Positions 1 through 59,768 of a stretch of 64,000 nt of DNA are shown here, piece after piece. The notes under the pieces were generated by a model. It was not told the DNA's origin, did no database searches, and worked only from the letters and a program-made list of their open reading frames with translations. Both the position numbers and the translations under genes were made by a program. Each line of letters opens with the position of its first letter. Within the stretch, counting starts at the first letter, position 1. Origin of the DNA: Haliotis rubra (lineage: Eukaryota); contig NW_025766975.1 of assembly GCF_003918875.1 (NCBI RefSeq), forward strand, positions 1,058,684-1,122,683. The letters run 5' to 3'.

Positions 1-618
1 GTATAAATATTCTACTTCCCTTCCCACGTATTTCCTAATCATATTATTATGTATCAGTCCATTAAACGAAGAGTGATTACAGTAGTATTCTGTACCTATA
101 GAGCTACACCAAAATCGCACTCGAAACAATTGCTTGCGATGATAATTCTTACAAATGCGTGACCACAATCCTTTTACATAAACGTGATACAGATTCTGTC
201 ATCTATTAATCTGTTAATTCCGGCTATTTTTGAGGTTATAACTCATCGTTCTATTGTTTAATCAGGGAGGGAAATAGTTGTCGATGTTCAAACGTCCGTA
301 AAATCTAACCTTGCGATACAGTTATGCTTCGCATGTTGTGTTAGGCACTTTAAGAAGAGCTCAAAGGGTCCAATACAGAGGCTATACTTGTTGTAAGTGT
401 TGCAGCAATTCGTGAGAGCTTCCCACAATAATACAGCATCGTATACCTGACTGTATATACGGCTATACATCTCAGTGCGTGAACACTGTTTATGAAAAAA
501 GTATTGGAGAAATGTCAGTATAAAAAGTACTGAAAAGATTACACCGTGGGGAGCATTAAAGATGTATCTCAGTGTCGAGTGTTTCAGATATATGATGTGT
601 GGAGTATTGAAGACAGTA

Positions 619-812
619 GTGAGTGAATTTAGTTTTACGCCGCGCTCAGCAATATTCCAGCTATATGGCGGCGGTCTGTAAATAATCGAGTCTGGACCAG
701 ACAATCCAGTGATCAACAGCATGAGCATCGATTTGCGTAATTGGGAACCGATGACATGTTTCAACCAAGTCAGCGAGCCTGACCACCCGATCCCGTTAGT
801 CGCCTCTTACGG
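619..812 (-). mobile_element. SINE family B (GAGT/ACTC-tailed), head-truncated copy
   Basis: On the + strand reads gagtgaatttagttttacgccgcgctcagcaatattccagctatatggcggcggtctgtaaataatcgagtctggaccagacaatccagtgatcaac..., the same consensus as >12 other copies. Ends at ...gtcgcctcttacgg without the head portion. Confidence 0.8.
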
Positions 813-962
813 AGTATTGAGGAAATATCACTGTACTGAATGTAAGTCACTATGTTTAGTATGAAACAAATATCACTCTGTAGTACTGAACACGTATTAC
901 TGTGTGGGGTATTGAACACAAATCACTGTGACTTATTGGACATATTCTGTGGAGTATTGAGG

Positions 963-1127
963 AATGAGTGATTATGGTTTTACGCTGATTTTACCAATAT
1001 TCCAGCATTATCACGGCGGAGGACACCGGAAATGGTCTTCACACATTTTACCCATGTGGGGAATCGAACCGGGTCTTCAGCGTGCCACGCGGACACTTTA
1101 ACCACTAGGCTAACCCTACCGCCTCGG
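963..1127 (-). mobile_element. SINE family A (tRNA-derived head, shared 3' tail module)
   Basis: Minus strand reads a tRNA-like head GCCTAGTGGTTAAAGTGTCCGCG...CCCGGTTCGATTCCCCACATGGG (A/B-box-like) followed by the tail ...GGAATATTGGTAAAATCAGCGTAAAACCATAATCACTC. Near-identical copies at 29955-30127 and 38505-38673. Confidence 0.75.
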
Positions 1128-1295
1128 CGTACAGAAGAATTATGACTGTCCCGATTATAAAGATACATTGTGGTGTGGAACATTAAAACATCACACTGTT
1201 TAGAATTTAAGGAATGCCACTGACTTAACAACTGAAAAAATAGTATGTCTTTCAGCGGCTTTGAGAAGTTGTTATAGATGACCAAGATTTTTTAA

Positions 1296-1674
1296 GGATT
1301 TAAGCTTCTTTATTCTTTCCCACGCAACGTTTCGGGATCATTACAGATCCCTTCATCAGGTGAGTGAGTGAGTTTAGTTTTACGCCGCACTCAGCAATAT
1401 TCCAGCTATATGGCGGCGGTCTGTAAATAATCGAGTCTGGACCAGACAATCCAGTGATCAACTGCATGAGCATCGATCTGCGCAATTGGGAACCGATGAC
1501 ATGTGTCAACCAAGCCAGCGAGCCTGACCACCCGATCACGTTAGTCGCCTCTTACGACAAGCATGGGTTACTTAAGATCAATTCCAACTCGGATCTTCAC
1601 GGATCCTATGATGATGAAGGGATCTGTAATGATCCCGAAACGTTGTGTGGGAAAGAATAAAGACACTTAAATCC
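1296..1674. repeat. ~66-70 bp inverted repeat pair (1296-1361 / 1605-1674) flanking a SINE insertion
   Basis: Left arm ggatttaagcttctttattctttcccacgcaacgtttcgggatcattacagatcccttcatcagg. The reverse complement of the right arm is ggatttaagtgtctttattctttcccacacaacgtttcgggatcattacagatcccttcatcatcatagg, about 95% identical. Confidence 0.8.
1360..1606 (-). mobile_element. SINE family B, near full-length copy
   Basis: Runs from the (GAGT)n tail through ...gtcgcctcttacgacaagcatgggttacttaagatcaattccaactcggatcttcacggatcc. It lies exactly between the two arms of the 1296-1674 inverted repeat. Confidence 0.85.
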
Positions 1675-2767: not shown

Positions 2768-3053
2768 TAGATTGTTTGTTGTTTAACGTCGCACTCAGGA
2801 ATGTTCCTGCTATATGACGTTGGTCTGTAAATAATCGGGTTTGGACCAGACAATCCAGTGATTGACATCTTGAGCATCGATCAACGCAGTTGGGATACGA
2901 TGATATGTGTGAACCAATCCAGCGAGCCTGAGCATCCTATCCCATTTGTCGACTCTAACGAAAAGCATGGGTTGAGGAAGACCAGTTCTGATACTGATCT
3001 TCACGGGTCCATAAACAAATGCTTGTGCTGAGGTCGGAGTCATACAATGGACT
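2768..3053 (-). mobile_element. SINE family B (older, diverged copy inside macro-repeat unit A)
   Basis: Diverged version of the B consensus. It includes the extended head ...cacgggtccataaacaaatgcttgtgctgaggtcggagtcatacaatggactc, which is also seen at 46771-46830. The orthologous copy in unit B lies at 10448-10728. Confidence 0.75.
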
Positions 3054-4698: not shown

Positions 4699-4800
4699 AA
4701 TGCGTTCGCCCGTCACTTCGGAGGCCTGGGTACAACGTCTGAAGCCGAATTGTGATCCAGTTTAATGTTACTAAAAGGTCGTTAAACCATACTCATTCCT
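4699..4800 (+). mobile_element. SINE family A, 5'-truncated copy (ancestral to macro-repeat)
   Basis: gaatgcgttcgcccgtcac...ggtcgttaaaccatactcattcct. Positional orthologues lie at 11171-11312 and 17355-17486. Confidence 0.65.
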
Positions 4801-7800: not shown

Positions 7801-9345
7801 TAAAAAAACATGCATCTGTGTCTTTGCCCAGGATGGTGCTTTGAATAGATCACTTTTTCGCATCTCGTGATCTCAAAACTGGTATGATCATTATTTCATG
7901 ATAGTAATTCATACACACATGCTAATGATATAGCCGGAATGGTACAATGGACGAGCACTCACAAGAGACATCCTACCAACATGGGAAGTTATTTATATAA
8001 ATGGCCAGGAAAATGAAATATACAGCCATGTTTGAGGGTTTGTAAACATTGAGCTATTAAAGTTGTTTTTCGATAGTGATGTATTTGATGAAAGTATCTA
8101 AGTTGTGTTTTACACCTTAAGTTTGCATTTTGATGCTTTCTGTTGCAAAGTAAGATCAAATACCTGTAACTTCTAAATTTATGCATTAATATCTCTTTGG
8201 GTAATCAGAATGATAATGCTAAGCTTAATGCAAGTTTATTTGATTATTTCGCGAGACATTCTGTGGATAACACACAAACAACGTCGCCATATAAGACATA
8301 AAAGGGAGTCAACAAGAAATTTGGAATGCAAGAGCTGTTCAATTGACAGATTGTCAATTTGTGATAATTTCAAATTCCATTTCCATTATTCCTTTTTCAG
8401 GAGTGCATAAACCGTCTTGACAAACATATATTATACTCCATCAAAGAGGCGAGATTATAATACACTGACGTTTGTAGACAAGTCACAAAACATATGTTTT
8501 GTTTTTTTTCACTTTATTTCTTTCTTACGCATTGGTACAGTTTTATCATTCATACACAACATTATTTCAAATACACAGCACAATAAGTAACAAGCATAAG
8601 TGAGATCGAGTAGGTTATGTAAATAAGTTGTTAGGTTATGTAATAAGTAAACATATGTAATATTTAACTGATATTTGACATATGGTGCAATCGTATCAGT
8701 TCACATGGACAACATTTATACAACTTTCGCGCGGAAAATGTCTGTAAGATTGCATTATGTAGTATTCTCAATTCACAGTACATTATGCTAGCTTCTTTGA
8801 AGTTCATGATGTGACAAGCGCCAGGGTAATCTTCCCAATGCGAATGGTACCAATAATTGTACCAAAGATAACTTAAATACATGCTTGGAAATATCCGCAA
8901 AGAACAACTAATACTGGATAAATGACACTTTTTGACACACGAGGACTGCTAATAAATCCGCCCATCAACCAAGGAAAGACCATTAAGAGGAAACATATCA
9001 AGTGTACAATGAAATACCACAGGTACAAATATATATCAACACTGAAAAGGTTAACAGTCGCCAGTCATAATATAATACAATTGCAAATATCCATTATGAA
9101 AGGTAATGATTTTGAAAGTTTAAGGTATAATGTAACCAATATCTCTTGGATACAGGTTTTAATCAAAACGATAAAGATATTTACTCTTATATCTTTGTCA
9201 TATGAACGTCCAGACCAAATGGATGAAACAGATTCATAGAAACTTCCAGTGGGTTTTTAATGTATAAAGTATGTTTTAGCTATGGGATTCTAGCAATGTC
9301 TATTTACTAATAATGTGCAGAGAAGAGTTAGTGAATGTGTTCAGG

Positions 9346-9492
9346 TTTATGCCGCATTTAGCAATATTATTGCAATATGAAAGTAGGGGAGACCAGAAAT
9401 GGGCTTCATATATCTTAAAAATGACAGGAATCTAATCCGGGTCGTAGGCATGACGTGAAAACGCTTTAAATACTAGGCCACCCCACTGCCCG
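9346..9492 (-). mobile_element. SINE family A copy (present only in unit A)
   Basis: gtttatgccgcatttagcaatattattgcaatatg...ggcatgacgtgaaaacgctttaaatactaggccaccccactgcccg. Unit B diverges from unit A at this exact point (16500 vs 9350). Confidence 0.7.
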
Positions 9493-10728: not shown

Positions 10729-11170
10729 CTTATTTTGATTACGGAAATGATTTCGTCGCTATATTTACATCGATTTGAGGATTCAAGGAGGAGACGTGTG
10801 TTGGCGTGTATGGATGCACTCGTGAGTTACACTCGCTATTGATGATTTGACTACTGTCTCATTATAACACGTTTTGAATGAAATCTGAAAGAAAGATTTG
10901 TGTATTTTTTAATTTTGACCCCTTTGACTCTTTCTTAATGACTTGCGGCAAATACAAGCTCAAATTATTAGAAAATGATATATGTGTTTGTAAAATAATC
11001 ATCATAAATCTCACATACGTCTTTGTTTCTATTTTCTGGTCAAGTTAGATCAGTGAGAACTTTCATTTGTCCGGTAGTTCAGTTCCACTCAGTTGTTTTT
11101 TGGACAAACAATTAACAGCTTTTAAGGTCAACGTCATTTGTTTTAGACTCCTTTCTAATCTGTCACGGAA

Positions 11171-11312
11171 GGTTGGATAGCTCAGTGGTTAAAGCGTTCG
11201 CTTGTCACGTCGTTGGCTCGGGTTCGATTCTGCACATAGGTAGCCGATTTGAAGCCGATGTTTTGGTCCAGTGTAATATTGATAAAACCGGCGTTAAACT
11301 ATACTCACTCAT
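11171..11312 (+). mobile_element. SINE family A, tRNA-like head plus tail
   Basis: ggttggatagctcagtggttaaagcgttcgcttgtcacgtcgttggctcgggttcgattctgcacatagg...gtaatattgataaaaccggcgttaaactatactcactcat. Confidence 0.75.
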
Positions 11313-14300
11313 GTACGAAGTTCATCTATCATCCCCACATTTCGATGCTTGGAAAATAATGACATCATGACATGAGTGTAGATATGCATGAAGTATAGTC
11401 ATCTCGACTGGATGCAATTACTATACAAGAGGTCGTAGTTACATGTCAGCAATCCAGACGATCAAGAACCCGCTAATTCATTTGATGTCGTGTCTATCTA
11501 ATAATACTTGCTATCTTTGTCGCGAGGCAAAATTTCCGCCAGACAAGATGTATTATATATGGTGTAGGATTGACATATGCTCAACACAACTAATGTTACA
11601 ATGAACCCTTTGTCAATACGGAACACGATAAGTGTATATTTGAATAGTGGTCGAGTGGTCAGTGTGTTTATACAACTGTCCAGACATATAATCATACATC
11701 ATAGGGATGGTCGCTGATATACACCAATGTCCATTACTTGACCTTTAAAGAAGATGCATAGACAGCCACACTTTGATTATATGAAGAATCGTAGTCTAAA
11801 ATATGCATTCTCTATGTTTAGGAGTAGACTAACAATGTAACAAGTAATAATGGAGACGTACTTTCCCCCTTTACTGACACTATATCAATAACATTGGTTG
11901 CTGTATGTATAATTTATTGGGTTGTGTGGCAGTACTTGCTTGGACTGTTAGAAATGTGTTGTTTATGAAACAGCAATCTAGGGTATTTCTAACATGAAGT
12001 ATTGACAGGTCCACATTTACTATAACAGTCTTAGCATCATTGGGTGAAAATTCTTTCACCGATGCCTCCTCATACTTCTTGAGTGAGTAAGTGAGTGCGT
12101 GAATAAGTGAGTGAGTGAGTTAATATTTAACGTCACATCGGCCATATCTCAGCCATATCGTGACAAGAACATATTTGACATTGAAATGGAATATATGTAT
12201 ACGATAAAAACCTGTCTACGAAGGACAGTAAAACAACTAGAATATCACAATTACAACTAACACTAGTGTGGAAAGTTAAAACTAATAGCACTATTTGGAC
12301 AATACAATATAAAATCTGGCTATAGATCGCTAACAACTGAAGGTAGATCACCAAATTAGGGACCATGACTTACATTACTTTTGCTACCTGCATGGACCCT
12401 AGCTGGATTTATGTCATCCCTTCAGCCGCTGGCCATTGAATAAGTGAGAGAGTGATAGTGTGAGTGGGTGAGTGAGTGTGTTCCACGGACGGTAGTTCGG
12501 CGAGTGAGTGTGTCATTGCGTCAGTGTTAAATATAGTTTTACGTCACGCAATATTCTCGCAACATCACGGACAGTGACACCCGTCTGCACACATTATGTG
12601 TAGCAAACGAAACTGGACCTTCATTGTGAGAGATCTTCTTGAATCTCATCTCAATATAACGATTTTCCAAAGTTGAAAGATTTGGAGCAGTCAATCTTTT
12701 CGATGTACATTTTTCCAATACACATCTAAAATGATAATTAAAATTTAGGACTGCCTAACTTTCCGACTGGTCGTTGGAATGATGCACGAAAAGAGCAAAC
12801 ATTGCACTATGTCATTATTGTATCCTAAATAGTGAAGGAAGTGTTTTATGCCTAACGCTGCACTCCTGACATACTACTGTGATCATTAAAGTGATAGGTG
12901 ACCAGACCATCCATCGAAACGACAGTGTTTATCAATTTTGTTGAAACCACAATTTAAAGTATTTTTAAAAATCAATTACGTCTCATGAGAAGAGAAGAGA
13001 AGAGATTCTATTGCTTGGAAGGTTAAAGATACACTTTACATGTCAATGATAGAGGATCCTCAGTCTCTCTAATACTTTGAAACAGATTCCATTCGGCTGT
13101 AAAGGACTACAACACATATTCTACCGGCGCCGTATCTTGCCACCCCTGCTGGAATTGGTTTTTAGATGATTTGTATGTTCAGCCTGGTATTGTGAAATGG
13201 GACGTAAACGTGTCTCCAGATCATCAGTATTTCAGTACATTTACGCTCACACTTTGACCATTCCAGACAGCAGGTGTAAACCAGATTTCTGGTGTCCGTC
13301 GACGTGATATTTGTGGAATAGAATGAAAGCGGCATAGAACCATATTCACTCATTCTTCAAACAGTAGTGAATACAACAGAGTAACGCCAATCAACTAATG
13401 GATGTTCGCTAAGTAAACATTGGTCTCTCACACTACTTTCATTCAGACATGTCCAATAAGAACAATTGTTATTAAATGAATTTTTACACTCAGACCCTGA
13501 CAAATTTCCAAATGCATCTAGTGTTTATGTCTGAGTGATCAAAGGAGAATATTCACGTTAACCAATGTGCCAGTCTAAATGTCAAAGATTTCCGATACTA
13601 CTGAGATTTGCGGTCACAAGTATATGTTATATGTTGTCATCAGTGTAAATCTAACGTATTTAAAAGAATCGCTTGGCTTTGGAATATTGGGGTCATATGA
13701 ACAGAGTTATTTATGGAGATAGTTTGGCGTTTTTGCAGCATCGTATAAATCAGGATAAGTTCAGAATCCAATCAATAAATCTGGCATCACTGGTTTCTGA
13801 CAATACTAAGTCTATAATCGCCCAGTAAATAACACGTCAAGCCGACACAACTGGAACTAATACATACAAGCTGTCAAAATTGATTGATGAATTGCCATTG
13901 GATGTACGTCTCGAAGAAAATACGATGATCCTTGTGCCTTTACAGAAGGATTTAAGTTATTTATTGTGTAAGTAGAAGTAGGAATAAAGTTTGATAATAT
14001 TTGAAAAGGTTCACTGTTGGTGTATTTTGAAATATCTTCAGTTGACTTTGAAATCGTTAAAAGTTTGAAAATTGTACTTGGTTGGTGAGAAATCCCGCCA
14101 CTTTAACACAAACAAAGGTCTGTGTATGTACATACTCGAATTCCAAAGTTATAGTGACATGGAATTTCTTCATTGGGAATTCCTGTGAATAAATGTTTGG
14201 ATTTGAACCCGGGAAAGAGTGTGTTAAATGGTTGATGAAACGCCACCAAGCAGTGGTTCTAATTGCACGACATTTGCAAGAAGAAGGACAAAAGCCGAGA

Positions 14301-17981: not shown

Positions 17982-18226
17982 TACCCATGAAGGTCCGGGT
18001 TAGAATATTGATCTTCAGTAACCCATGCTTGTCGTAGGAGGCGACTAACGGGATCGGGTGGTCAGGCTCGCTGACTTGGTTGACACATGTCATCAGGTTC
18101 CCAATTGCGCAGATCGATGCTCATGCTGTTGATCACTGGATTGTCTGGTCCAGACTCGATTATTTACAGACCGCCGCCATCTAGCTGGAATATTGCTGAG
18201 TGAGGCGTAAAGCCAAACTCACTCAT
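17982..18226 (+). mobile_element. SINE family B, young copy-specific insertion with 13-bp TSD
   Basis: Sense-oriented copy (head ...catgaaggtccgggttagaat... to tail ...gcgtaaagccaaactcactcat). It is flanked by perfect direct repeats ataaggagaatcg at 17969-17981 and 18232-18244. It is absent from the orthologous sites in unit A (~5270) and unit B (~11770). Confidence 0.85.
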
Positions 18227-20934: not shown

Positions 20935-21175
20935 GGTTTGTTAGTTGTTTAATACAGCACTAAGCAATATTCCAACTATATTGCGGCGGTTTTGAAACAA
21001 TCGACCGTGGACCAGAAAGTCCAGTGATCAACATCATGATCATCGGTCTACGCAGTTGAGATACGATGACATGTGAACCAAGTCAGCGAGCCTGACAAGC
21101 CGATCCCATTCGTCTCCTCTTACGACAAGCATGGGTTGCTGAAGACCAATCTAACCCGGATCTTTACGGGTACAA
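20935..21175 (-). mobile_element. SINE family B copy
   Basis: gtttaatacagcactaagcaatattccaactatattgcggcggttttgaaacaatcgaccgtggaccagaaagtccagtgatcaac...tcttacgacaagcatgggttgctgaagaccaatctaacccggatctttacgggtac. Confidence 0.8.
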
Positions 21176-24100
21176 TCCATCAAAGATACGAGACTTTAAC
21201 ACACTGTAGTAAGTAGACTAATGCACACGACAGACACATTCAATATTCAATCTTAATCTTCTCAGTTCACATGTAGGACAATATTACAGATTTCACCCTA
21301 AACATTGCTGTACGATTGCCTTATGTGAACACTCGATGAACTTTATGAAAGCTTCTTTACAGTATCAACATTAGATTTTGAAGTTCATGATATGACAAGC
21401 GCCCGGTAATCTTTCTAATGCCAGTGGTACCATTTATTGTACCAAACGATTACTTAAATACCTGCTTTGAATTGTCCGAAATGAACAAGTGATGATGGAT
21501 GAATGACACATTCTGACACATGACCATGGTTCCTAGTATGGATATCTACCTTCAGATGTGCTGGCGATCTATAGCCCGTGTTTTATATTTATTTGTATTG
21601 TCTTCCTTAATTACACTGTTTTAGTTTTACATGCTAGTTTTATGTTCATATCTGTGATACTCTAGTATTTTTACTGTCCATCGTCGACAGGTTTAACTCT
21701 TCATAATGTTATCATGTTTGTATTATATAAATTGTTTTCGTCACCATATGGCTGAGATATTGCCGCTGTAACGTTAAATATGAACTCACTCACTCTGACA
21801 CATGAGGACTGTTCTTAAATTATATTATACTATATTCCAATGACATACCACAGGCACACATATGTATTAGCTCTGGAAAGGGTAAAAGTCACCAGTCATA
21901 ATATGATAAAATTGCATACAGCCATTACGAAGGTTAATGATTGTGAAAGTTTAAGGTATAATAATAATATATCCTAACGGATAGCCTTTGGGTTCAGGTT
22001 TTAATCAAAGCGATAACGGTATTTACTCTTATAGCCTTGTCATATGAACGTCCTAACAAAATGGTTGAAACAAATTCATAGAAACGTTCAGTAAGCAGTT
22101 AAAGTATGCTTTACCTCTGGTATTCTAGCAATGACTATATTTACTGATATTGTGTACAGACAATGTGGACAATGATGATGCTATTACGATAGATATATAG
22201 ACAGGGCTTTCCGGTAACATTCCTACATTCATATACTGGCTTCAGTTGACGAGTGTTGCTCCGAAAGGTTAATGTTGTCTCTCTTGGCTCTGTAATGAAG
22301 CATATGTAGTAATAGAAGGTGCTAAGTATCAACGACGAGATAGCCAAGGCTCCCATAACGTTACGTTATCGTATGTCTCGTAGAAGGTCTCAATACATAT
22401 AAGGTGCAGGAATTCCGTAGTAAGTGTTATCACCCGTATATGAGTTTTTGTTCGTTACTTTCGCAATTTGAATATAACAAGGTAGCCAACTTTGATGTTT
22501 CATCTACCAAAATATAATGAGGTTATGGTATGATCTAAAAAGGCGGGTATATATAACCGTGAGATGTTGAGTCATATATGTTCATTCAGAAGTGTTACAT
22601 GGACATTTACAAACGAAAATGTATGTTCCTGATCCAGTCATTAATCACGTCAATATATATTGCAGCCATGTCAACAATGTCAATGCATGTCATTATCTCT
22701 ATCCGCTAATATGAAATATAATACATGGTAAATATATTGTAGAAAGCTGAATGGCAGAAGATAAATTGGATACATCTTCATTTCTTTGCCATAAACACTT
22801 TAAATAGAATGTTCCAAATCATTTCTATAATTACAAGAAATCGTGCCGAAAAAACAGATTCTATTTTACGATTCTACCCTTAAACGTTTCGAAACTAAAG
22901 CTTTAAAAAAGCACAAAGTAAAGGATGATATTTCATTGCAACTGCAACATTTTTACCTAGAAGTGGTAATTACCGAATGTACAAAAAATATGGCACGTTA
23001 GAGTCATCTGTGAACAAGGCATCCAATTACGTAGAGGTGTAAGATGTAATATATAGCTACCGAATGATCGCTCTGTTCCTTCCGGGCGTTCTTCAACATC
23101 GTAATCAGTTTGGCCAGTTCATGTTCAGTAAACTGGACATGAACTTCGTCACCAAATTAACCATCGTGATATCCCAAAGCTTCTTCTTCAAACACTTTTA
23201 AAATGAAATATTTTCATGTATTATGTAGCTCATGAAAGGCATAAGTGAGTGAATTTTGAATTTCAGGTTAAGAAGAAGTACACAAGCCATTTCCAGTACC
23301 ATACGAAACCTGTGCTTAGAGCAGAGCCCGTCGATTATATTATAAACATGCGTTACAAAATCACTAACACTTAGTGGTGATACCAGATGTTCGCCAAAAG
23401 ATGAGCATATTCTGCATGTTGCCATCTTAGTTCTACGACTAACCTAAAACCTAGATGTATTACTAAATCAAATCATTATCTCTGCCAAAAAACATATCAA
23501 TTTATGTAATATAAAAAAAATCAATTCCAAAATTCAGTAATTATAAAAATGTATTAAAAGAGATATTTTATGTAGAAAAATGTATTTCAAAGAGAAACAA
23601 TGAAATTGAAAAATTCAATCTTAAATGGAATTCGCTCATCCCAATATTCAGCAACTAATTATTATTACATCTCTACAGCAATGTATCTTCACCTTTTCTG
23701 TGCTTGTTGCTACCATATACCCTTGTTATGGATTTTGTAACCATGGGAACAAATAAAAAACAAAACCAAAAAAGACAAAAACCCAACCTAAACCTAAGCC
23801 AATATTAAAGAATGGGAGCTATGATTAGTGATAAGGCTGCTTTAACAGCTAAAACTGAACAATCACACCAGACCTCGGTTTAGTTACCTATGATTCAAAT
23901 GTGGAAATGTAATCCATATGTTCACAATGAAACGTTTTGAAAGCTTTGCTGTGGCCTTAAATATCGTGATCCTGATCGAACAACGTTTGGGCAAGAGCCG
24001 TATCACGCTCTTTAAAATCTTGATAAAACGATTGTACCTAAAATGTGAAAAGTAAACACCAAAGCATCGGATAAATCTCTGACTAATGAAAAGTGTTGAA

Positions 24101-25830: not shown

Positions 25831-25996
25831 TGAACAGCACAAATTGTCCGAAGACTGTGCATAAAGAAATACTTAAACATCCCAAGAAAAGCATGATTGC
25901 ATATACAAAGGCTGGCTGCCGGCACATTGCGTGTTAGAAAGTTTCAAACGTTTCCAGTAGTATCAACTGTCCCATGAACATCTTTACAAACTCGGA

Positions 25997-26098
25997 CCGC
26001 CTCCGTGGTGTAGTGGTTAGAGCGTCCGCCGGAGAGCGGAAGGTCGCGGGTTCGATCCCCGACCGCGTCATACCAAAAGACGTTAAAATATGGTACTT
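25997..26098 (+). other. tRNA-like sequence (pseudo-tRNA or tRNA-derived SINE head)
   Basis: ccgcctccgtggtgtagtggttagagcgtccgccggagagcggaaggtcgcgggttcgatccccgaccgcgtca. It has a good D-arm and T-arm (GGTTCGATCCCC). The anticodon stem TCCGC/GCGGA encloses only a 6-nt loop and the acceptor ends do not pair. It is followed by ...gacgttaaaatatggtac, which resembles the family-A tail. Confidence 0.5.
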
Positions 26099-29000
26099 GT
26101 TGGTCCCTGCCTGGCGCTCGGCATTAATGGGAACAAAAAGGACTGGTCGGCTTGGAGTCAGTATAATGTGTCTGAGTGGGGTATTCATGCTTCACTGCTG
26201 CATGGTATCTCAGTGGGCTAGCACTATAAAACCAGCTTCAGTCTGGGCTAGTACAAGCAGCTGCACATACACATACACACGCATGCACGTCGTCATATGA
26301 GCGAAATATTCTCAAGCACGACGTTAAACCCAATTTCACCTCCCCTCACCGTTACCAGCTCATATTGGAACATATAAAGCAAATATTAAATAACACTGCA
26401 TTGACACACTGATCGCACACCCTCAGGCTTTCAGAATACACGTTCGATGAATGTTTTTCATTAAACATAAAACATTATACAGCATTTTTGCTGTTTGCCG
26501 CAGCTGACGGCATGAGTTATTCCTGTGATTGTTGCTTTTGGTTCCCTGTTATTTCCTCTGCTCCAGTAATGCGTTTATCCTTTGCCGAGAAATTTGACTC
26601 AAGATGTCCATGGCAGAAAGAGGCCGACACAATGACTGCTAGTTGTAAATTATGCATTGTGTCTAGGCACGAACATAGCTGGATAAATAAAAGTAAAAAT
26701 ACTATTTCCATATTCATAAGAAATATTTTCTAAAATCAGAGTCGATTGAACGATCCCGACATTATCATTAGCATGTGAATCATCTTCAGTTATAACTGAT
26801 GCTTAAGTTAGCTGGCAACGTAGAGCAAAACGTTTTCTTGAATATCTCGCCAAATTATGTCCAAGGTAGACAAGATTATTTAAACCTTCAAAGCTTAGAG
26901 AATTCACATTTAGAGCCCCGTAGCATGAAAAAAATTAGAATAAGTGTACCATACCAATAAAGTATATTTTCTTGCATTTTGTTTCGTGTGAAGCAATGGA
27001 AAACATTTTGTTATTGAGTATGAATTGTAGGAATACTTGATTTTACGAATCACTGAAACATGCTCTGGCTACGAATACTAATACCCCATGGTAATGTATA
27101 TAAAACACCTTAAATTACTGCACATATTATATGGATATTTTCATGAATACATGCTTATGATATCGTTGGAATCATGCAACGCTCCGATAGTTCTTATGGT
27201 TATGGAAATGCTTGTGTTTGGCTTTAGATAAGTGTCTGTCCGAGGAAATGGTCCACGCGATGTAAGGTTATGTAAATGCTGGCAATATTAATTCATAACG
27301 TTCTAAACGAAACGAAAGTTCGAAATCCATAATTATGTATAATATTGTTCACTGTGGAAGAACGTACTACTTACATTTGTATAGATAACCGTTTAGATCA
27401 GTCGTTTTATTTCTTGAGAAAGAAATTCATTTCAACGGAATCACGGCAATCCTAGCGTTTATTGGTGTTCAATCGTTTTTTATCAACTTGTAACGTTGAA
27501 ATCAATTTCAAGTGGATCTGAAATAGACACACACATGTGACTGACATAGGATCCGAATATATAATGGCAATCTGAGGACAAAGAAAGACTTCTGGTTTGC
27601 TATGCAAGCTTCCATTCCTTCAGCTTGAGAAACATGTATTTCCTTAGAATCATTGAAACCCTCCAGGTCTGTCCGATTCAGGAGGATTTCTTGTACCGTC
27701 ACCGAATCCTGGTAATCCAGTGTACGTGATCAGGAAAGCGTTTACCATATTGATGTTCCATAATGATGATACCGATTGAATAATAACTTCTACAACAGTT
27801 CTTCCAACGGCTGTTTAGGACATTCAGGGATCAATAATGACAGTTTTATGTCACTTATCTGCTTCAAAGAATCCATGCGTGAGAGAGAGAACGGAATTCG
27901 AAATATCCGTGTCGAGTACTAGTAACTCCCCATGTCTTAATAAATGTATAGATTTGAATGAATGTGTTTTTACTTGTAAAGACTGATGATAACGTGCGGC
28001 TACTAACAAGGAATTATTTGATGACACGTTTCTATTAAGTGTGTATTATATGGGTAATTGGCAAATTCTTCGTTGTTGACAACCAGCAGCTGATCCAGAT
28101 CAATATTACCAGCATAGGCGGGTGTATTCAATAAACGATTTTTTATACTGAGTGTTGTAAAAGCTCCAAAGAGTGTGCATTATTATATTGTTTCGCTCAT
28201 ATTACTTGTTATAATTAACAGACGCTTTTGTTACAAAACGGGTAAAAAGTGCGGAATTGGATATATTTGAAGCAATTGTAAAATCTGAAACTCTGTCTAA
28301 CTAACTTTATAGAACTTACTTTGTTTGACCAGTTGTATTATTTGTTTTGCATATTCAAATCCAACTGGTATATAAAGTATACTTGAACACGTTAATGATA
28401 CGATATTTAAAGAGAGATACATATAAATGTGATATTTCCAACTGCTGTTAATCGCAGATCCTTTGTGATGCCTCTGACGAGCTCCCGATACAAAGTTTAT
28501 TGGTGACATATACTAACCCTGTAGATTGCTTCTCTCATGGATGTGTTTGCTTTCACTCACAAGCCATTCCCCTCGTCAAACATAATCTTCAATTACCTAG
28601 GCATACTGTCTCCATACCGCCATGGCAGCAAAGGAAGTAGAAGAGGACAGTCCGGAAGGCAATAGTTTGTTACGACGTGATCAAGTAAATCATGTTCCGT
28701 TTGATTGAATATAAATGCAAACATCAGTTGTTAATCCAATGAAAAATGTAATGGCATACAATCTGTGACAAACTATTTCCAGGCTGGACTAGGTTGGTAT
28801 CAACTGTAATCCCACACCAAACCTTGTGTATTCGTCTTCGATTCCTGTCATTGAAATGGCATACATAGAGTGAAGGCAATATAGAGCAAAAACGTTTCTA
28901 GAAACCTACATCCATGAATCATGTTTTATGGTTTTCTTTTTCGATTTTTCTGAAAACATTAGATCTTACGCTGTATTTTAAACCTTTGATATTTCCACAG

Positions 29001-29954: not shown

Positions 29955-30127
29955 GACTGACTGACTAACTGAGTTTAGTTTTACGCCGCTTTTAGCAATA
30001 TTCCAGCAATATCACGGCGGGGGAGACCAGAAATCGGCTTAACACATTGTGCCCAGGTGGGGAATCGAACCCGAGTCTTCGGCGTGACGAGCCAACGCTT
30101 TATCCACTAGGCTACCCCACCGCCCCG
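29955..30127 (-). mobile_element. SINE family A copy with (GACT)n tail, in dup copy 1
   Basis: gactgactgactaactgagtttagttttacgccgcttttagcaatattccagcaatatcacggcggg...ggggaatcgaacccgagtcttcggcgtgacgagccaacgctttatccactaggctaccccaccgccccg. Confidence 0.8.
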
Positions 30128-32502: not shown

Positions 32503-32750
32503 AAGTGAGTGAGTGAGTGAGTTTAGTTTTACGCCGCACTCAGCAGTATTCCAGCTATATGACGGCGCTTTGTAAATAATCGAGTCTGAACCAGACAATT
32601 CAGTGATCAACAGCATGAGCATCCATCTGCGCAATTGGGAATCGATAACATGTGTCAACCAAGTCAGTGAGCCTGACACCCGATCCCGTTAGTCGCCTCT
32701 TACGACAAGCATGGGTTACTGAAGGCTCATTCTAACCCGGACCCTCACGG
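32503..32750 (-). mobile_element. SINE family B with 12-bp TSD (gttttcaYtaat)
   Basis: Full B consensus. Flanking direct repeats gttttcattaat (32491-32502) and gttttcactaat (32751-32762). Confidence 0.85.
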
Positions 32751-35700
32751 GTTTTCACTAATGCAAATCAGCAAAAAATGTTTTAAAAGACTGAAATCAT
32801 AGGAATGATTATTTTACAATTTTACACACTCTACAACAGTTGTTTCTTGTTTTAAAGGTTGAAAAATTGTGGCTTTTAATGGTTTATCTTTGTCCCAAAG
32901 CAGATTTTATTGCAGCCTTTCTTTTGGACATCTAAATCACTATTATTGGTTGAGTTTGGCGTGGACGAAAATAGGACAATTTAACTCTTCTGAAAAAGAT
33001 GCATTTCACCTAAATGTGAATGCATTTGAGAATTTGTTTTCGTGATTTGCATAAATCTGTTGTTAAGCTTTCTTGAAAGCTAATACCTTCTAACATATCC
33101 TTGATATTTTCTAAGTAATTCATAAAGGTAGGAGGGTAACTTTTCTTTTGGCGTTTAGTGTTTGTGTTGTCTTTCGACGATAGGTTTCCATACAGTAAAA
33201 ATCTCAGAATTAGTAATTAATGATTTTCTGTCGGCATGATATATGGCTGCCTGTGACGTGGAATGTGAACGCACTCTGATGGGAGAAAGAGAATACAATT
33301 CCAGTGATAGCTGCAAAAGAAACCTAGCAGTAGACTGGATATCAAAGGTGTAATCGTCACACAACCGCTTGAAGAGAGATGCATGCACTTGCCCACTTAT
33401 GTAGTTTCAATACATTCTTGAACGTTTCACACAATGGTGCATAAACCTTTTTCAAATATTGTAACTTCCACACCTATGCTTACATTCCATAGCAAATTAT
33501 TCTTACATCCTTCCATCAAACTTTAACAAAGACAATGTAATACAACATAAACAGTGTTCACAAATGTATTAAACTAACGCTCCGATAGTTCTTATGGTTA
33601 TTGAAATGCTTCTGTTTGGCTTTAGATAAGTGTCTGTCCGAGGAAATGGTCCACGCGATGTAATGTTATCTTAATGCTGACAATATTAATTCATAACGTT
33701 CTAAACGAAAACGAAAGTTCGAAATCCAAAATTATGTATAATATTGTTCACTGTGGAAGAACGTACTACTTACTTTTGTATAGATAACCGTTTGGATCAG
33801 TCGTTATTTCTTGAGAAAGAGATTCATTTCAACGGAATCACGGCATTCCTAGCGTTTATTGGTGTTCAATCGTTTTTTGGATCTGAAATAGACACACACA
33901 TGTGACTGACATAGAAAGGATCCCATTATACAATGGCAATCTGAGGACAAAGAAAGACCTCTGGTTTGCTATGTAAGCTTCCATTTCTTCAGCTTGAGAA
34001 ACATATATTTCCTTAGAATCCCTGAAACCCTCCAGGTCTGTCCGAAGGATACCTGATTCCTGGTACTCCAGTGTACGTGATCAAGAAAGCGGTTACCATA
34101 TTGATGTTCCATAATGATGATACCGATTGAATAATAACTTCTACAACAGTTCTACCAACGGCTGTTTAGGACATTCAGGGATAAATAATGACAGTTTTAC
34201 GTCACATCTATGCGCGAGAGAGAGAACGGAACTCGAAATGTCCGTGTCGAGCACTAATAACTCCCCATGGCTTAATAAATGTATAGATTTGAATGAATGT
34301 GTTTTACGTGCAAAGACTGATGATAACGTGCGGCTACTAACACGGAATTATGTGATGACACGTTTCTATTAAGTGTGTATTATATGGGTAATTGGCAAAT
34401 TCTTCGTTGTTGACAACCAGCAGCTGATCCAGATCAATATTACCAGCATAGCTGGGTGTATTCAATGAACGATTTTTTATACTGACTGTTGTAAAAGCTC
34501 CAAAGAGTGTGCATTATTCTATTGTTTCGCTCATATTACTTGTTATAATTAACAGACGCTTTTGTTACAAAACGGGTAAAAAGTGCGGAATTGGATATAT
34601 TTGAAGCAATTGTAAAATCTGAAACTCTGTCTAACTAACTTTATAGAACTTACTTTGTTTGACCAGTTGTATTATTTGTTTTACATATTCAAATCCAACT
34701 GCGATATAAAGTATACTTGAACACGTTTATGATACGATATTTAAAGAGAGATACATATAAATGTGATATTTCCAACTGCTGTTAATCGCAGATCCTTTGT
34801 GATGCCTCTGACGAGCTCCCGATACAAAGTTTATTGGTGACATATACTAACCCTGTAGATTGCTTCTCTCATGGATGTGTTTGCTTTCACTCACAAGCCA
34901 TTCCCCCTCGTCAAACATAATCTTCAATTACCTAGGCATACTGTCTCCATACCGCCACGGCAGCAAAGGAAGTAGAAGAGGACAGTCCGGAAGGCGATAG
35001 TTTGTTACGACAGGACAGTTAATCATGTTCCGTTTGATTGAATATAAATGCAAACATCAGTTGTTAATCCAAGGAAAAATATAATGGCATACAATCTGTG
35101 ACAAACTATTTCCAGGCTGGACTAGGTTGTTATCAACTGTAATCCCACACCAAACCTTGTGTATTTGTCTTCGTTTCCTTTTATTTAAATGGCATACATA
35201 GAGTGAAGGCAAAATAGAGCAAAAACGTTTTTAGAAACCTAAATCCATGAATCATGTTTTATGGTTTTCTTTTTCGATTTTTCTGAAAACATTAGATCTT
35301 ACGCTGTATTTTAAACCTTTGACATTTCCACAGAGGACATAAATCCATCATGGATTAAATAACGGTTCATTTCGGTAAGTGAGTCATTTATAAATGCCAT
35401 TACCTTTTTGAAACGGACAACAGTTGTTGAAAATGCGCTGATTAAGATTGATATCCATGTGAAAGAATCCCGAAATATGGCTTAAATAAATAATGGATGG
35501 CGTATCTAAAGATAATGGAGTTTTGAAAGAGTTGGTATACAAGACAGATGTACATGTTTTCTCAAAAGAGGGGAGGAAGGTAATTCTGAAAACACTTCAT
35601 TTTATTAGATGTTAGCAAACGAGAGGATCAGTCTTTCTAAATATGTACATGATACAATGGCTTATGCTTGATGGAATAGGTACATCCAGAACGTGATGCT

Positions 35701-45391: not shown

Positions 45392-45559
45392 CATTTGGAT
45401 AAGATAATTCATAATAAAACATAAAGTTGTTTTTGGAGTGTTTCTTTGTCATGGAGGGTGATAAATAACAGTGACTGACAATCCAGTGATTGACATCATG
45501 AGCACCAATGTACACAGTCGGGGTGTGATGACATGCAGCAACCAATCTAGCGAGTCTGT

Positions 45560-50382: not shown

Positions 50383-51590
50383 AGTTATAATGAATAATAA
50401 TAATAATAATAAATGCATATTTATAATGCGCCCCTTCCACACCCTAAGGCATGCTCAAAGCGCTACAGAATATTTACACTGGAGTATTTACAGATGAAGT
50501 TATACATAATATACTGAGAAAAGGTGGGTTTTAAGTCTGGACTTAAAAATGTCAATTGTGGCAGAGCTTTTAAGGGCACATGGGAGAGAGTTCCAAAGCA
50601 CAGGCGCGGAGTAAGAGAATGATCGGTGTCCGAAGGATTTCAGTTTGTAGGATGGGATGACCAGTCGGTTTTGTGTGTTTGAGCGCAAGTTGCTTGCGGA
50701 GACATACGGATGTAGGAGTTCAGACAAGTAGGAGGGAGCCAAACCATGGAGGCACTTGTATGTCAGACAGAGGATCTTAAAGTCAATTCTGGCCCTAACT
50801 GGTAGCCAATGCAGTTCTTTCAACACTGGTGTTATATGGGAACGTTTAGAAGTCTTGCTGATGATGCGGGCGGAAGTATTTTGGATCTTCTGAAGCTTAT
50901 CAAGGAGTTTAGAACTGAGGCCTGAAAGGATGCTGTTACAGTAATCAAGCCTAGATGTAACAAGAGCTCGAACAAGGGCTTGAGTTGCAGCAGTTGTCAG
51001 GTATTGCCGAATGATACCAATGGATCTTAGGTGAAAGTAGCAGGTCCTGCTCAGACGGTTAACATGAGCATCCAGAGTCAAGGAAGAGTCGATGTGGACA
51101 CCCAAGTCCTTAACCACATCAGAGAATCTGACGTCAGAGTCTGCGACTGTAAGGGTGTCGGTTTTGACCTTGCTGAGTTGTTGCTTTGTACCAATGAGAA
51201 CTGCTTCTGTTTTTGTGTCATTAAGTTTAAGCATGTTTCCTGTCATCCAGCACTTGATGTCCTGCGTACATTCAGCGATGCACTGAAGAGACGTAAATAG
51301 ATCTGACAGATGAAATGCTTTCAGGAGCTGGGTGTCATCAGCGTAGGCATGATGAGAAACTGTGTGGTCTGTAGTAATCCTTCCGACATATCCGGTATAC
51401 AACACAAACAGGACTGGACCAAGGACTGATCCCTGTGGCACCCCACATGTGATTACAGTGCCTTTTGATCTCTCAGTGCCAACAACAACAGATTGCTGTC
51501 GGTCAGACAGATACGACGTCACCCATTGAAGGGCATGACCTTCAAGTCCGTACTGTTGTGTGAGCCTGGACATGGTATATAAATACATGT
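50383..51590 (-). mobile_element. 5'-truncated non-LTR retrotransposon (CR1/L2-like LINE) 3' part with (ATT)n tail
   Basis: RT C-terminal ORF followed by a 100-bp 3'UTR ending in (ATT)6. On the + strand this reads (aat)6 at 50385-50402. Confidence 0.85.
50500..51588 (-). CDS. Reverse transcriptase fragment (RT domains 4-7 plus C-terminal region), 362 aa ORF
   Basis: ...GVPQGSVLGPVLFVLYTG...HAYADDTQL...LQKIQNTSARII...ITPVLKELHWLPVRARIDFKILCLTYKCLHGLAPSYLSELL...RSFSYSAPVLWNSLP...FKSRLKTHLF. This is a typical CR1/L2-clade LINE ORF2 3' end. It has no upstream RT or EN region, so it is truncated. Confidence 0.85.
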   Translation of the reverse strand: MYLYTMSRLTQQYGLEGHALQWVTSYLSDRQQSVVVGTERSKGTVITCGVPQGSVLGPVLFVLYTGYVGRITTDHTVSHHAYADDTQLLKAFHLSDLFTSLQCIAECTQDIKCWMTGNMLKLNDTKTEAVLIGTKQQLSKVKTDTLTVADSDVRFSDVVKDLGVHIDSSLTLDAHVNRLSRTCYFHLRSIGIIRQYLTTAATQALVRALVTSRLDYCNSILSGLSSKLLDKLQKIQNTSARIISKTSKRSHITPVLKELHWLPVRARIDFKILCLTYKCLHGLAPSYLSELLHPYVSASNLRSNTQNRLVIPSYKLKSFGHRSFSYSAPVLWNSLPCALKSSATIDIFKSRLKTHLFSVYYV

Positions 51591-53478: not shown

Positions 53479-53481
53479 CAT

Positions 53482-53686
53482 GATGTCAATCATGGAATGT
53501 CTGGTCCCGACTCAATTATTTACAGACCGCCGTCATAAAGCTGTAATATTGCGGCGTCAAAGTATACTCATGCCAATAATGGTTGTCACCCCCTTCCCCA
53601 CCCCAACCCCATCCACACACACCTCACACACCCTCTCCAATTAAACAATTGAAAGGGGTGACAACCATTATTGGCAAGAGTATACA
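53482..53686. repeat. Inverted SINE-B 3' fragment (53482-53572, sense) plus 33-bp-stem hairpin with 57-nt C-rich loop (53561-53686)
   Basis: gaatgtctggtcccgactcaattatttacagaccgccgtcataaagctgtaatattgcggcgtcaaagtatactcatgcc is an inverted partial copy of the adjacent SINE. It is followed by agtatactcatgccaataatggttgtcaccccctt ... loop ccccaccccaaccccatccacacacacctcacacaccctctcc ... aaaggggtgacaaccattattggcaagagtatac. Confidence 0.75.
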
Positions 53687-57600: not shown

Positions 57601-58108
57601 CATCATTGGATTTGATATTGAGATGTCTGGAATCTGGATCCCCGGAATGAGCATTTCATTGGCTGCAGTGTGTTTCCACCACAAAGGTTTATCGTGGTTG
57701 GTAGGTAATCTCCAACAATTTCTGATCTTTGTAAATGAGATCTGTCTCAACTGTCTTAAACACATAATATTGGTGTAGTGACTGTTCTAACGTGGCAAGT
57801 CATTCCTATCTTTGTGGTATAATTACGCTTCAACAGATAGCATCAAAAACCTTGATTGGGTTTTACTTATTCATGTTGATAACTGTGGCGGAAAGGATGA
57901 GAAACGTATGATGTAAAGACCCTTAGTTTTCCACGTATAGCAGGAACATATAAGTAAACTATGCTTATAATGAACACGCTTATGACGATTTCACGGACAT
58001 AACAAACTGTTTGTGTATGCCCACCACCAACTGTATATGGGCATTATGGCTGCGCTTATAACGAAATGTATTGTACTGATCCCTTTGAGTTCTTTATAAC
58101 CGTAGTTA

Positions 58109-58500
58109 ATAATAATAATAATGTGTCCATTTATATAGCGCCAAACTCCACACTAGGTATGCTCATAGCGCTAACAATCAAGGCCATTATTACCCCGGAT
58201 AACCCAAGCTGCCTGTTAGGCGCTAGAAGGTTATAGTCATATGACTTTTTTCCACCGGGTACCCATTTTCCTGCTGGGTGAACAGAGACAATTTTGAACA
58301 AACTCACTTGCCTAAGGTGAGACCACATGTGTCACATGTGCTTCGTTGTGGGGCAGGACTCAAGTCCTAGAAACTCTCAGGAGTCAAGCTGCCAAACACG
58401 GTCACCCATCCAAGGACTCTACGAGCTCGACGCTGCTTAACTTCACCGATTTGTGACCTGAGCTTTAAGCACAGGACCACGCGCCACCACACTAGTTGCC
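58109..58500 (-). mobile_element. Candidate 5S-rRNA-derived SINE (SINE3-like) with a LINE-derived 3' module and (ATT)5 tail
   Basis: Minus strand reads ...cggtgaagttaagcagcgtcgagctcgtagagtccttggatgggtgaccg..., which matches the 5S rRNA boxA/IE/boxC region GGAAGCTAAGCAGGGTCGGGCCTGGTTAGTACTTGGATGGGAGACCG. The 3' terminal ~65 bp plus (ATT)n are highly similar to the 3' end of the LINE at 50383-50455. Confidence 0.5.
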
Positions 58501-58617
58501 TGTACATATCGGCAAATAGTCCTTATACATTATACCGGTTCTTTATTAATTCCTTTTAATGTTGGTTGGTGTTACACTCTACACAGAGCAACATTCTAGC
58601 AATATGGCGGCGGTCTA

Positions 58618-59768
58618 TACTGAACCACAAAAGAAACGTCGTTTTTCAAAACCAAATGCAAGATTTTGTTCTTACAAAATGGTGTTTTTATTATGATTCT
58701 ATCGTTTTGTTAACATGTTTTTCAATCCAAATTGACAGTTATTACCAACATCAGTGTGTTTTCTTATGAAAACGCATATCGACCAAACGCACATAAAAAT
58801 GCAGACGTAGTAAAAGGATCCGTATGACATTCATGAAAATGAAAATGCACGTGCATATCGTGACAACCCTACCAATGAAAGCGAGTCCCAAACTCGCCTG
58901 AAATCATTTTTGTTTTGACACAATCGCCATGGCACGACTTACGAGAGATCAGAGGAACCAAGTCTAGGGACGATTGCCAGTTGGCCAGACTGCACGGAGG
59001 GTAGCCAATCATTTTAATCTCCATGATAGGACAATCTACCGACTGCAGGAGTGGTATCAGGCTACTAACAGCATCCAAGACCGCCCAGGCAGAGGGCGAC
59101 CTTCAGTAACATCACAACGTCAAGACCGACAGATTGTGCGCCACCATCTGCAGGATCGCTTCCCCAGAGCGACGGGAACAGCACGCCAGACCATTGCGAC
59201 TCACAACAGACCCATCAGTGCCGATACAGTGCGTCGACGTTTGCGCGGGAGAAACCTCTGCTCTCACAGTCCATATTGTAGTCCTGTCCTAAACCGCTCA
59301 TCACCACCACAACCGACTGCAATGGGCAACTCAGCATCGAAATTGCCGTTTTCGACAATGGAGAACTGTGCCTTTTTCTCATGAAAGCCGATATTGTGTT
59401 TCGACAGTCGATGGCAGAGTGAGAGTATGGTGAAGGCGTGGGGAACTGTTTTCCAATGAGTGTATTGTTGAAAGAGACTCGCTGGGTGTTCCAAGCATCA
59501 TGGTGTGGGGTGCAATCGGTCTGAACATTATGCGCAACGCTTTCATCGATGCCCATAGAGGCCACACACAATACTGACTTTGGGGTATCTTAATGGTACC
59601 ATTCTTGGTAATTTGGTTTGTGTGAACTCTAAATGTGATTCCCGAAAATGTGTTAACCATAAGTTTCAAGTTTGAACTCAATCCTCCGTTTTGATTGTTA
59701 ATTAGAGTGAATTAAAGTGTGTGCTTTAAGAAACCGCTATCGGTGCGACATTTTTTTGTGGTTCAGTA
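58618..59768 (+). mobile_element. Tc1-like element, internally deleted pseudo-copy, with 27-bp TIRs and TA TSD
   Basis: Left TA|tactgaaccacaaaagaaacgtcg; right cgacatttttttgtggttcagta|TA. The ORF from 58929 reads MARLTRDQRNQV*..RLQEWYQATNSIQDRPGRGRPSVTSQRQDRQIVRHHLQDRF...TARQ...ISADTVRRRLR, then in another frame W.TVPFSHESRYCVSTVDGRVRVWRRRGE...IMVWGAIG. It contains stops and frameshifts and the DDE C-terminus is missing. Confidence 0.7.

Follow-up and report, generated by a model that had tools for sequence, protein, structure and literature searches.

How can short interspersed elements (SINEs) whose 5' heads are unrelated come to end in the same 3' tail? The question is raised by a 64,000-nt stretch of the Haliotis rubra genome (NCBI RefSeq assembly GCF_003918875.1, contig NW_025766975.1, positions 1,058,684 to 1,122,683 of the forward strand; hereafter the window). 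A reading of its letters alone, here called the original prediction, had described two to four SINE subfamilies with one conserved tail and had proposed that a single long interspersed element (LINE) mobilises them all. Our analysis indicates that three families of modular retroposons, A, B and D, very probably all end in the 3' module of a group of I/Nimb-like LINEs, and that the head of family B was drawn from a LINE 5' end.

Unrelated SINE heads share one 3' tail

Family A is approximately 164 nt long and consists of a tRNA-like head, a linker of about 30 nt, a hairpin tail and a tetranucleotide repeat. The Rfam tRNA family RF00005 matched its head at 30050-30121 (minus strand) with 32.1 bits, above the gathering cutoff of 29, and the A and B boxes are discernible in the family-A sequence (TAGCCTAGTGG and GGTTCGATTCC). 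About six independent dispersed copies are present, with a tail that matches LINE 3' ends, and the features of its sequence identify family A as a simple tRNA-derived SINE. ARAGORN called zero tRNA genes in the window and neither SINE head, a result that is expected and uninformative for SINE heads.

Family B is approximately 245 nt long and starts with GGACCCGTGAAGATCCGGGTTAGAAT. Searches with Rfam at relaxed thresholds gave no RNA-family match in family B (no tRNA, 5S or 7SL) and no ribozyme or small-RNA family in its head or elsewhere in the window. Alignment of the copies separated two versions of the tail. The B1 terminus is ...GGAATATTGCTGAGTGCGGCGTAAAACTAAAC(TCAC)n, which can also be read as ...GTAAAACTAAACTC(ACTC)n, with ACTAAA directly before the (ACTC)n repeat; the older B2 version ends in ...GGAACATTCCTGAGTGCGGAGTTAAAC(AACA/AAAC)n. 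The core of the B body, ...ATCACTGGATTGTCTGGTCCAGACTCGATTATTTACAG..., is well conserved and persists even in very old copies.

Comparison of the two families showed that the tails of A and B are 89.7% identical over the last 58 nt (E=7.5e-20), whereas the A head and the B head plus body have no significant similarity, with only chance matches of 12 nt and 7 nt (E=0.28 and 1.0). The predicted combination of unrelated heads with one conserved tail was therefore borne out. Were A and B instead a single family whose heads differ only by insertions and deletions, the common tail would be explained, and nothing else speaks for that reading. The A head is tRNA-like, the B head matches a LINE 5' end (see below), and nothing beyond chance links the two; we regard the one-family explanation as refuted.

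Tail-bearing copies are genuine retroposons

Each family was searched with nhmmer using a single good copy as the query, which gave 13 family-A and at least 17 family-B matches between positions 618 and 58624. A covariance model built from SINE tails alone (R1), run over 155 kb on both strands, placed 26 tail modules within the window (E<0.01). The tail motif of the original prediction occurs 7 times in the window against 0.12 expected, its family-B head string lies at 46824-46852 (plus strand) and 10659-10687 (minus strand) against 0 expected by chance, and the strings that it had listed as two minor variants were both found (12123/21744 and 12518). The claimed count of more than 20 copies in 64 kb is inflated, because many copies are paralogues carried by segmental duplications (sets starting at 29966/38511, 32511/41045, 2774/10452, 5964/13263/19386, 4698/11169/17354 and 12529/18682), and merging the copies within the 7.3-kb and 8.5-kb duplications leaves approximately 19 independent insertions.

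Copies are flanked by target-site duplications (TSDs) of 7 to 14 nt, and some are truncated at the 5' end. In addition, neither the B copy at 17983-18225 nor the element at 12106-12426 is found in the paralogous duplication units, where the target site is present only once. The TSDs, the 5' truncations and the empty paralogous sites therefore demonstrate that the elements are genuine retroposons. They also provide a relative timeline, in which the A variants and B2 are older than the duplications, and B1 and one LINE fragment are younger.

The extensive tandem duplication of the window, with several paralogous copies, lends some initial appeal to a local artefact, namely that the 3' ends of unrelated repeats became alike within this locus through gene conversion or segmental duplication. 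On two unrelated metagenome contigs (L001 and L002) and on a Haliotis asinina chromosome (L004), however, the A and B1 tails recur in identical form, and the independent copies in the window bear their own TSDs and empty sites. Confinement of the tail to the window, the objection raised with the original prediction itself, was not observed, and a local origin now has a negligible probability. A scan of viral contigs for the tail gave no match, and a protein-database search with a spurious family-B translation returned one match, on a contig already found.

Two arrangements of B copies were observed besides. Two opposite-strand B copies form a palindromic pair at 53305-53571 and overlap at 53430-53484; palindromic structures of this kind have been reported for bivalve SINEs (PMC11481361). 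The B copy at 1362-1606 is bracketed by an 81-nt inverted repeat (91% complementary, arms 1278-1358 and 1612-1692), each arm of which contains a hammerhead-like core, CTGATGA-AGGGATC-TGTAAT-GATCCC-GAAAC. A hammerhead ribozyme at this site was considered and rejected: Rfam gives no match, and, as read by eye, a G apparently occupies the would-be cleavage position. In B copies of H. asinina (L004 7800-7930; L003 18430-18556, minus strand), about 30 nt of the hairpin region of the head are duplicated (…GCTTGCCATAAAAGGCGACT + CAGCTTGTCATAAGAGGCGACT…); the B copies of the window lack this duplication, which may be a species-specific subfamily marker.

The tail corresponds to the 3' end of an RNase H-bearing LINE

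The only LINE with a recognisable reverse transcriptase (RT) in the window is L2-like and ends in (ATT)n; tblastn with this RT as the query found no second RT in the window. The tail model R1 gave no match on the element (50390-51588), and its 3' end is different, so that, as had been predicted, this LINE is not the partner of the SINEs. The best named relatives of its RT are H. asinina proteins (76-85% identity); an exact look-up of the RT open reading frame (ORF) gave no match. Through homologues of this RT we retrieved the H. asinina loci L003 (CM074527.1) and L004, and approximately 41 kb of H. asinina were examined.

Locus L003 contains a different, full-length LINE that runs from 14012 to 6233 on the minus strand between copies of the TSD ACATTTAATGG. 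Its ORF1 has three CCHC knuckles, and its ORF2 matches the Pfam domains Exo_endo_phos_2 (9.5e-22), RVT_1 (9.8e-18) and RNase_H (7.8e-11). The domain architecture places the element as I/Nimb-like; its RT homologues carry no clade names. The LINE lies within the gag region of a BEL/Pao long terminal repeat (LTR) retrotransposon (L003 3124-6207 and 13962-14696, minus strand; Peptidase_A17, DUF1759 and RVT_1), and an L2-like LINE at about 9312-10747 interrupts it in turn, so that the insertions are nested three deep inside an intron of a GH10/CBM gene.

R1 matched the exact 3' terminus of this H. asinina LINE (25.6 bits, E=5e-5) and the terminus of a 56%-identical LINE on the unrelated contig L005 (E=5e-4). 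The predicted second LINE family with a SINE-like 3' end thus exists. Fragments of the same type are present in the window itself. The first minor variant of the original prediction, CCATATGGCTGAGATATTGCCG.TGTRACGTTAAATAT.AACTCACTC, lies at 12106-12426 (minus strand) and 21524-21795 (plus strand), where the sequence resembles the 3' untranslated region (UTR) of the H. asinina LINE. The fragment at 12106-12426 terminates in the hairpin, GTTAAATATTA and (ACTC)n, and its paralogous site in the third duplication unit is empty. The two fragments have different start points and their own TSDs, and are therefore 5'-truncated LINE insertions. Accordingly, this variant is not a SINE but a LINE 3' end, and the partner type is present inside the window. 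The second minor variant is an old, diverged A-like copy.

One tail-bearing family had been overlooked. Family D, at 25993-26349, has a different tRNA-like head, a long body, an internal (CA)n stretch (...ACATACACATACACACGCATGCAC...), a hairpin tail of the same type, GTTAAAC and a CACCT-like end (...TTTCACCTCCCCTCACC), and its tail is 78% identical to that of the LINE in L005. Its sequence is that of a longer tRNA-derived SINE. The Haliotis MESC SINEs combine a tRNA head with a (CA)n microsatellite inside the element and (CACCT)n at its end (PMC4758252), and family D matches MESC SINE/HalSINE1 in these three features when compared by published description.

The tail has a conserved fold

The tails of A and B1 are 68-71% identical to the last ~55 nt of the H. 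asinina LINE. Because this identity is low and nhmmer missed the LINE tail, the covariance model, which contained SINE tails only, was used as an unbiased probe. In these tails an internal loop separates two stems, the outer one of 6-7 bp and the inner one of 3-4 bp; the inner stem closes a 9-nt loop (UGRRAYAUU), and unpaired GU(A/U)AAAC and a short tandem repeat follow on the 3' side. Each tail takes the same shape when folded alone. Across 15 tails, 81.7% of the cells of the hairpin are paired, compared with 26-47% in slid controls. Compensatory changes occur at five pairs; the SINEs, for instance, have GCCGC/GCGGC where the LINE has GTCAC/GTGAC. The repeat (ACTC)n is common to A, B1, the H. 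asinina LINE and the L005 LINE, and related LINEs on L006 and L007 keep the order of hairpin, AUAAAC and tetranucleotide repeat with (CCAT)n as the repeat. As far as sequence and predicted folding can tell, the SINE tail and the LINE 3' end are homologous and combine a conserved stem-loop with the same terminal repeat, as in stringent LINE/SINE partnerships.

Several observations weigh against assigning all of these tails to the sampled LINE. Searches with the A and B1 tails as single sequences in nhmmer did not detect the LINE tail, and the full-length LINE is known from one copy only, in another species. Furthermore, the terminal repeats of B2, (AAAC)n, and of D, (CACCT)n, argue against a single partner. 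With regard to the fold, RNAalifold supported the inner stem only, and the covariation largely separates the LINE group from the SINE group and so reflects few independent events; for these two reasons we rate the structural evidence as moderate. Given the 68-71% tail identity and the failure of nhmmer, the sampled LINE is best viewed as a relative of the true source, not demonstrably the source itself. The predicted partnership thus held in that the tail common to the families is of LINE type, and the word single proved too strong. Because A and B1 are closer to each other than to the LINE and the repeats of B2 and D differ, several related LINE subfamilies, or transfer of tails between SINEs, are likelier.

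Under such a transfer, the tail would have passed from SINE to SINE by template switching of the RT, and the sampled LINE would be a distant cousin of the original donor. The identity of 90% between A and B1 tails, compared with about 70% to the LINE, fits this explanation, and template switching is the mechanism proposed in the literature for module exchange (PMC4758252, PMC4824008). On the other hand, transfer is compatible with LINE-dependent mobilisation, and a closer LINE subfamily may lie outside the approximately 41 kb of H. asinina that were sampled. We consider tail transfer an unlikely, though still serious, alternative to tails drawn from members of the I/Nimb-like LINE group.

The head of family B matches a LINE 5' end

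The head of family B had been described as non-tRNA. No tRNA match was found, in agreement with that description, which nevertheless falls short: in the H. asinina LINE, the 5' region (L003 13944-13877) matches positions 5-71 of the B consensus, with E=1.5e-5 when the LINE alone was searched and E=8.7e-5 when the search covered 43 kb. The matching segment belongs to the LINE itself rather than to an inserted SINE, because it lies inside the TSD bounds and is followed by no B body or tail. The first ~70 nt of B thus derive from the 5' end of the LINE. The related LINEs on L006 and L007 have no detectable head of this type and no motif resembling the hepatitis delta virus (HDV) ribozyme, and the result on the head therefore rests on one Haliotis LINE copy.

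A head of this kind is characteristic of LP-SINEs, in which the match to the 5' UTR of Nimb-clade LINEs covers the first 68-70 nt (Matetovici et al. 2016, Genome Biol Evol; PMC4758252). LP-SINEs occur in Haliotis diversicolor, H. midae, Littorina and oysters, are flanked by TSDs, carry ACTAAA or AATATA before their terminal tandem repeats, and have a body and/or tail in common with tRNA-derived SINEs (PMC4758252). Their partner LINE was described as 'as yet unidentified', the head having been compared only with locust, zebrafish and turtle LINEs, and the authors suggested that the LINE-derived head acts as a promoter (PMC4758252). Family B resembles them in its ~70-nt LINE-5' head, its variable TSDs, the ACTAAA before the repeats and the tail held in common with a tRNA SINE. 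Because its head matches a LINE 5' end, we conclude that family B is an LP-SINE, an assignment made by described features and not by sequence identity to the Hdi_LP/Hmi_LP consensi. What differs here is that a Haliotis LINE bears both the head and the tail modules.

The body of B (~110 nt) has no detectable match in the LINE, and family B accordingly has two LINE-derived ends that enclose a non-matching body. Could B instead be an internally deleted and rearranged LINE derivative, comparable to NARTc/L1Tc or the R2 'SIDE', that is transcribed by RNA polymerase (Pol) II or by read-through and not by Pol III? The LINE-like sequence at both ends and the lack of a tRNA, 5S or 7SL match point that way, there are precedents (PMC3383444, PMC3414825), and Matetovici et al. 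raise the possibility of Pol II and note the polyA-like hexamer ACTAAA (PMC4758252). The unmatched body, in contrast, shows that B is not a simple deletion derivative. On balance, we place this explanation only slightly short of an even chance.

At the 5' end of the H. asinina LINE, the 57 nt that start exactly after the TSD (L003 14004-13948, minus strand) score as an HDV-like ribozyme with RF02682 (30.7 bits, E=5e-4; the gathering cutoff of 44 is not reached) and RF00094 (22 bits). By eye, the motif comprises a P1 of 7 bp that opens with G.U (GGCACCC/GGGUGCU), a P2 of 7 bp (GAAGAGC/GCUCUUC), a P3 of 3 bp (ACC/GGU), an L3 of UCCUCGU, a GG after P1 for P1.1, and GCUAAG at the place of the catalytic C (J4/2), with P4 almost absent. 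The B-type module directly follows this motif in the LINE and keeps the P1/P2 pseudoknot topology without P3/L3. In the B heads (17983-18050, 1540-1606 and others) and in L003 13950-13880, a CCCG/CGGG pairing can interleave with GAAGAUC/GAUCUUC to give a pseudoknot, and the hairpin GUCG-UAAGAGG-CGAC can form as well. Across 11 heads, 86% of the proposed pairs are formed, compared with 25-47% in slid controls, and five pairs are compensatory. Rfam gave no HDV match in the B head at E up to 10. From this pattern we tentatively suggest, as a possibility that we consider doubtful, that the LP head shared by B, mollusc LP-SINEs and Nimb-type LINEs is a relic or relative of an HDV-like self-cleaving ribozyme. 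HDV-like ribozymes are known at LINE 5' ends and are kept by non-autonomous elements, as in L1Tc/NARTc and R2 SIDEs (PMC3383444, PMC3185411, PMC3414825).

A model for mobilisation

By analogy with the UnaL2/UnaSINE1 pair, the ORF2 protein of the LINE, a reverse transcriptase, would recognise the hairpin and the repeat on the SINE RNA. The RNA would then be copied into the nicked target by target-primed reverse transcription, a process expected to yield variable TSDs and 5' truncations. Transcription of A and D would presumably be by Pol III from their tRNA heads, while transcription of B might start from a promoter in the LINE-derived head or result from read-through. Both the LINE subfamily that mobilised A and B1 and the mode of transcription of B are inferred.

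Features of the window

The coordinates of the elements and duplications are collected in Table 1.

Table 1. Retroposon copies, LINE fragments and duplication units identified in the window
Feature	Position	Strand	Evidence and remarks
Family A, best-preserved full copy	29966..30126	-	nhmmer model 1-161, E=6e-48; TSD TCTAGGAAAATAC
Family A, paralogue of the 29966 copy	38511-38672	-	Inside the 8.5-kb duplication
Family A, full-length independent copy	963..1123	-	nhmmer E=4e-30; R1 67.2 bits
Family A, older independent copy	9330..9491	-	nhmmer E=6e-22; R1 30.7 bits
Family A variant, 16-nt deletion	11169..11311	+	Alignment; single old insertion with paralogues 4698-4798, 11169-11311 and 17354-17485 at equivalent positions of the 7.3-kb units
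Family A, 5'-truncated (body and tail only)	13263..13354	+	nhmmer model 71-163; R1 41-56 bits; one insertion with three paralogues, 5964-6048, 13263-13354 and 19386-19476
Old diverged A-like copy (second minor variant)	12529..12629	-	Tail stem GTCAC/GTGAC; R1 18-21 bits
Paralogue of the 12529 A-like copy	18682-18788	-	
Family B1, full copy	1362..1606	-	Head, body, hairpin tail, ACTAAA, (ACTC)n; nhmmer E=5e-76; R1 80.2 bits
Family B1, full copy inserted after the duplication	17983..18225	+	TSD TATAAGGAGAATCG; empty sites 5276-5292 and 11775-11791
Family B1, 5'-truncated from model position 50	618..812	-	nhmmer; TSD TCAATACTCC
Family B1 copy	32511..32752	-	nhmmer; TSD ATTAGTGAAA; paralogue 41045-41281 (-)
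Family B2, old insertion	2774..3010	-	Tail ...GGAACATTCCTGAGTGCGACGTTAAAC then (AAAC)n-like repeats; paralogues 10452-10687 (-) and, inverted, 46824-47031 (+); flanks common beyond the element
Family B2, independent copy	20945..21171	-	nhmmer, alignment, R1
Further B2/B-like copies	25608-25811, 44748-44948, 48383-48558	-, -, -	nhmmer, alignment, R1
Further B2/B-like copies	53305-53484, 53430-53571, 58563-58624	-, +, -	nhmmer, alignment, R1
Old core-only B fragments	4112-4247, 4336-4506, 16844-17071, 45455-45564		nhmmer, alignment, R1
Family D	25993..26349	+	R1 34.3 bits, E=1.4e-7
Diverged family D copies	55410-55700, 61273-61386	+, -	
LINE 3' end, 5'-truncated	12106..12426	-	Identity of 85.5% with the 3' UTR of the H. 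asinina LINE; TSD CTCACTTATTCA; R1 E=5e-3
LINE 3' end, shorter 5'-truncated copy	21524..21795	+	76% identical to the H. asinina LINE 3' UTR; TSD TCTGACACATGA; R1 E=1.5e-3
Resident L2-like LINE	50390..51588	-	RT C-terminus (50500-51588, Pfam RVT_1) and 3' end GCGCTTTGAGC...ATAAATATGCATTT(ATT)n
Unit of ~7.3 kb, three copies	roughly 2094-9354, 9754-16505, 17283-22138		85-96% identity
Unit of ~8.5 kb, two copies and further partial copies	29736-33576, 38283-42099		95% identity

The window is rich in transposons, its G+C content is 36-43%, and prokaryote-like gene structure is absent. Self-comparison revealed large tandem segmental duplications; the duplicated blocks, partial and inverted copies included (77-96% identity), span 2094-22138 and 27178-48044, and no host coding exons were recognised within them. 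A scan of the longer ORFs of the window for host genes found transposase-like fragments only, and the only long coding remnants are the L2-like RT and a MULE transposase. The latter, a MULE-type DNA transposase frame at 36413-37782 (plus strand; Pfam MULE 4.7e-12) made up of two overlapping ORFs, sits between duplicated blocks. ORF fragments at 31973-32272 (minus strand) and 58968-59381 (plus strand), which contain ...RPRSGRPSITT... and ...RPGRGRPSVTS..., resemble the helix-turn-helix of Tc1/mariner-type transposases when the translation is read by eye. The window also contains a tandem repeat at 44142-44512 (unit of 167 nt, 2.3 copies, 79% matches) and an inverted repeat at 54372-54447/54623-54698 (76 nt, 97% complementary, arms 175 nt apart) that has the look of a foldback of the miniature inverted-repeat transposable element type.

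Relation to known SINE-LINE systems

Mosaic mollusc SINEs with Nimb-type tails are already documented, and the phenomenon seen in the window is thus real but known. The tail of HalSINE1, a Haliotis element, recurs in several SINE superfamilies of bivalves (Nishihara et al. 2016, PMC4824008). Nimb LINEs, of the I superfamily, are among the SINE partners for which 'mosaic' homologous tails across superfamilies have been described (Martelossi et al. 2024, PMC11481361). Like the mollusc SINEs with Nimb tails (HalSINE1, LitSINE1, BivaV/BivaMeta), the families of the window place differing heads and bodies on homologous LINE-derived tails. Published identities between SINE and LINE tails are 72-95% over 35-61 bp (PMC11481361); the value for A and B1 lies just below this range, and that for D with the L005 LINE lies within it. 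Family A, unlike the mollusc Meta SINEs, is short and has no room for the 66-bp Meta domain.

Stringent pairs such as UnaL2/UnaSINE1 need a 3' stem-loop and terminal repeats, according to the accounts of Kajikawa and Okada 2002 given in PMC4758252 and PMC4824008. As in that pair, LINE and SINE here have a common 3' hairpin followed by short tandem repeats. UnaL2, however, belongs to the L2 clade and its recognition was shown experimentally, whereas the LINE considered here is I/Nimb-like and recognition is proposed from the common tail. In L1Tc/NARTc of trypanosomes and the R2 'SIDE', the non-autonomous element keeps the LINE 5' module (promoter and/or HDV-like ribozyme) and the 3' end; family B differs in keeping only the P3-less, pseudoknot-like part of the 5' module and in having a foreign body.

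For annotation of the locus, true SINE families can now be told apart from LINE 3' fragments, counts inflated by duplication have been exposed, and a relative timeline of insertions has been gained. If the LP head is indeed related to HDV-like ribozymes, the ~70-nt 5' domain common to LP-SINEs and to LINEs of locust, fish, turtle and molluscs would serve as an RNA fold for 5'-end processing, beside or instead of a promoter. The accepted picture of modular SINE evolution stays unchanged. A Haliotis LINE with both an LP-type head and a hairpin-(ACTC)n tail is a small addition to the 2016 description of LP-SINEs, and, because it carries both modules, it is a concrete candidate, or a close relative of one, for the source of the ends of B and of the tails of A and D.

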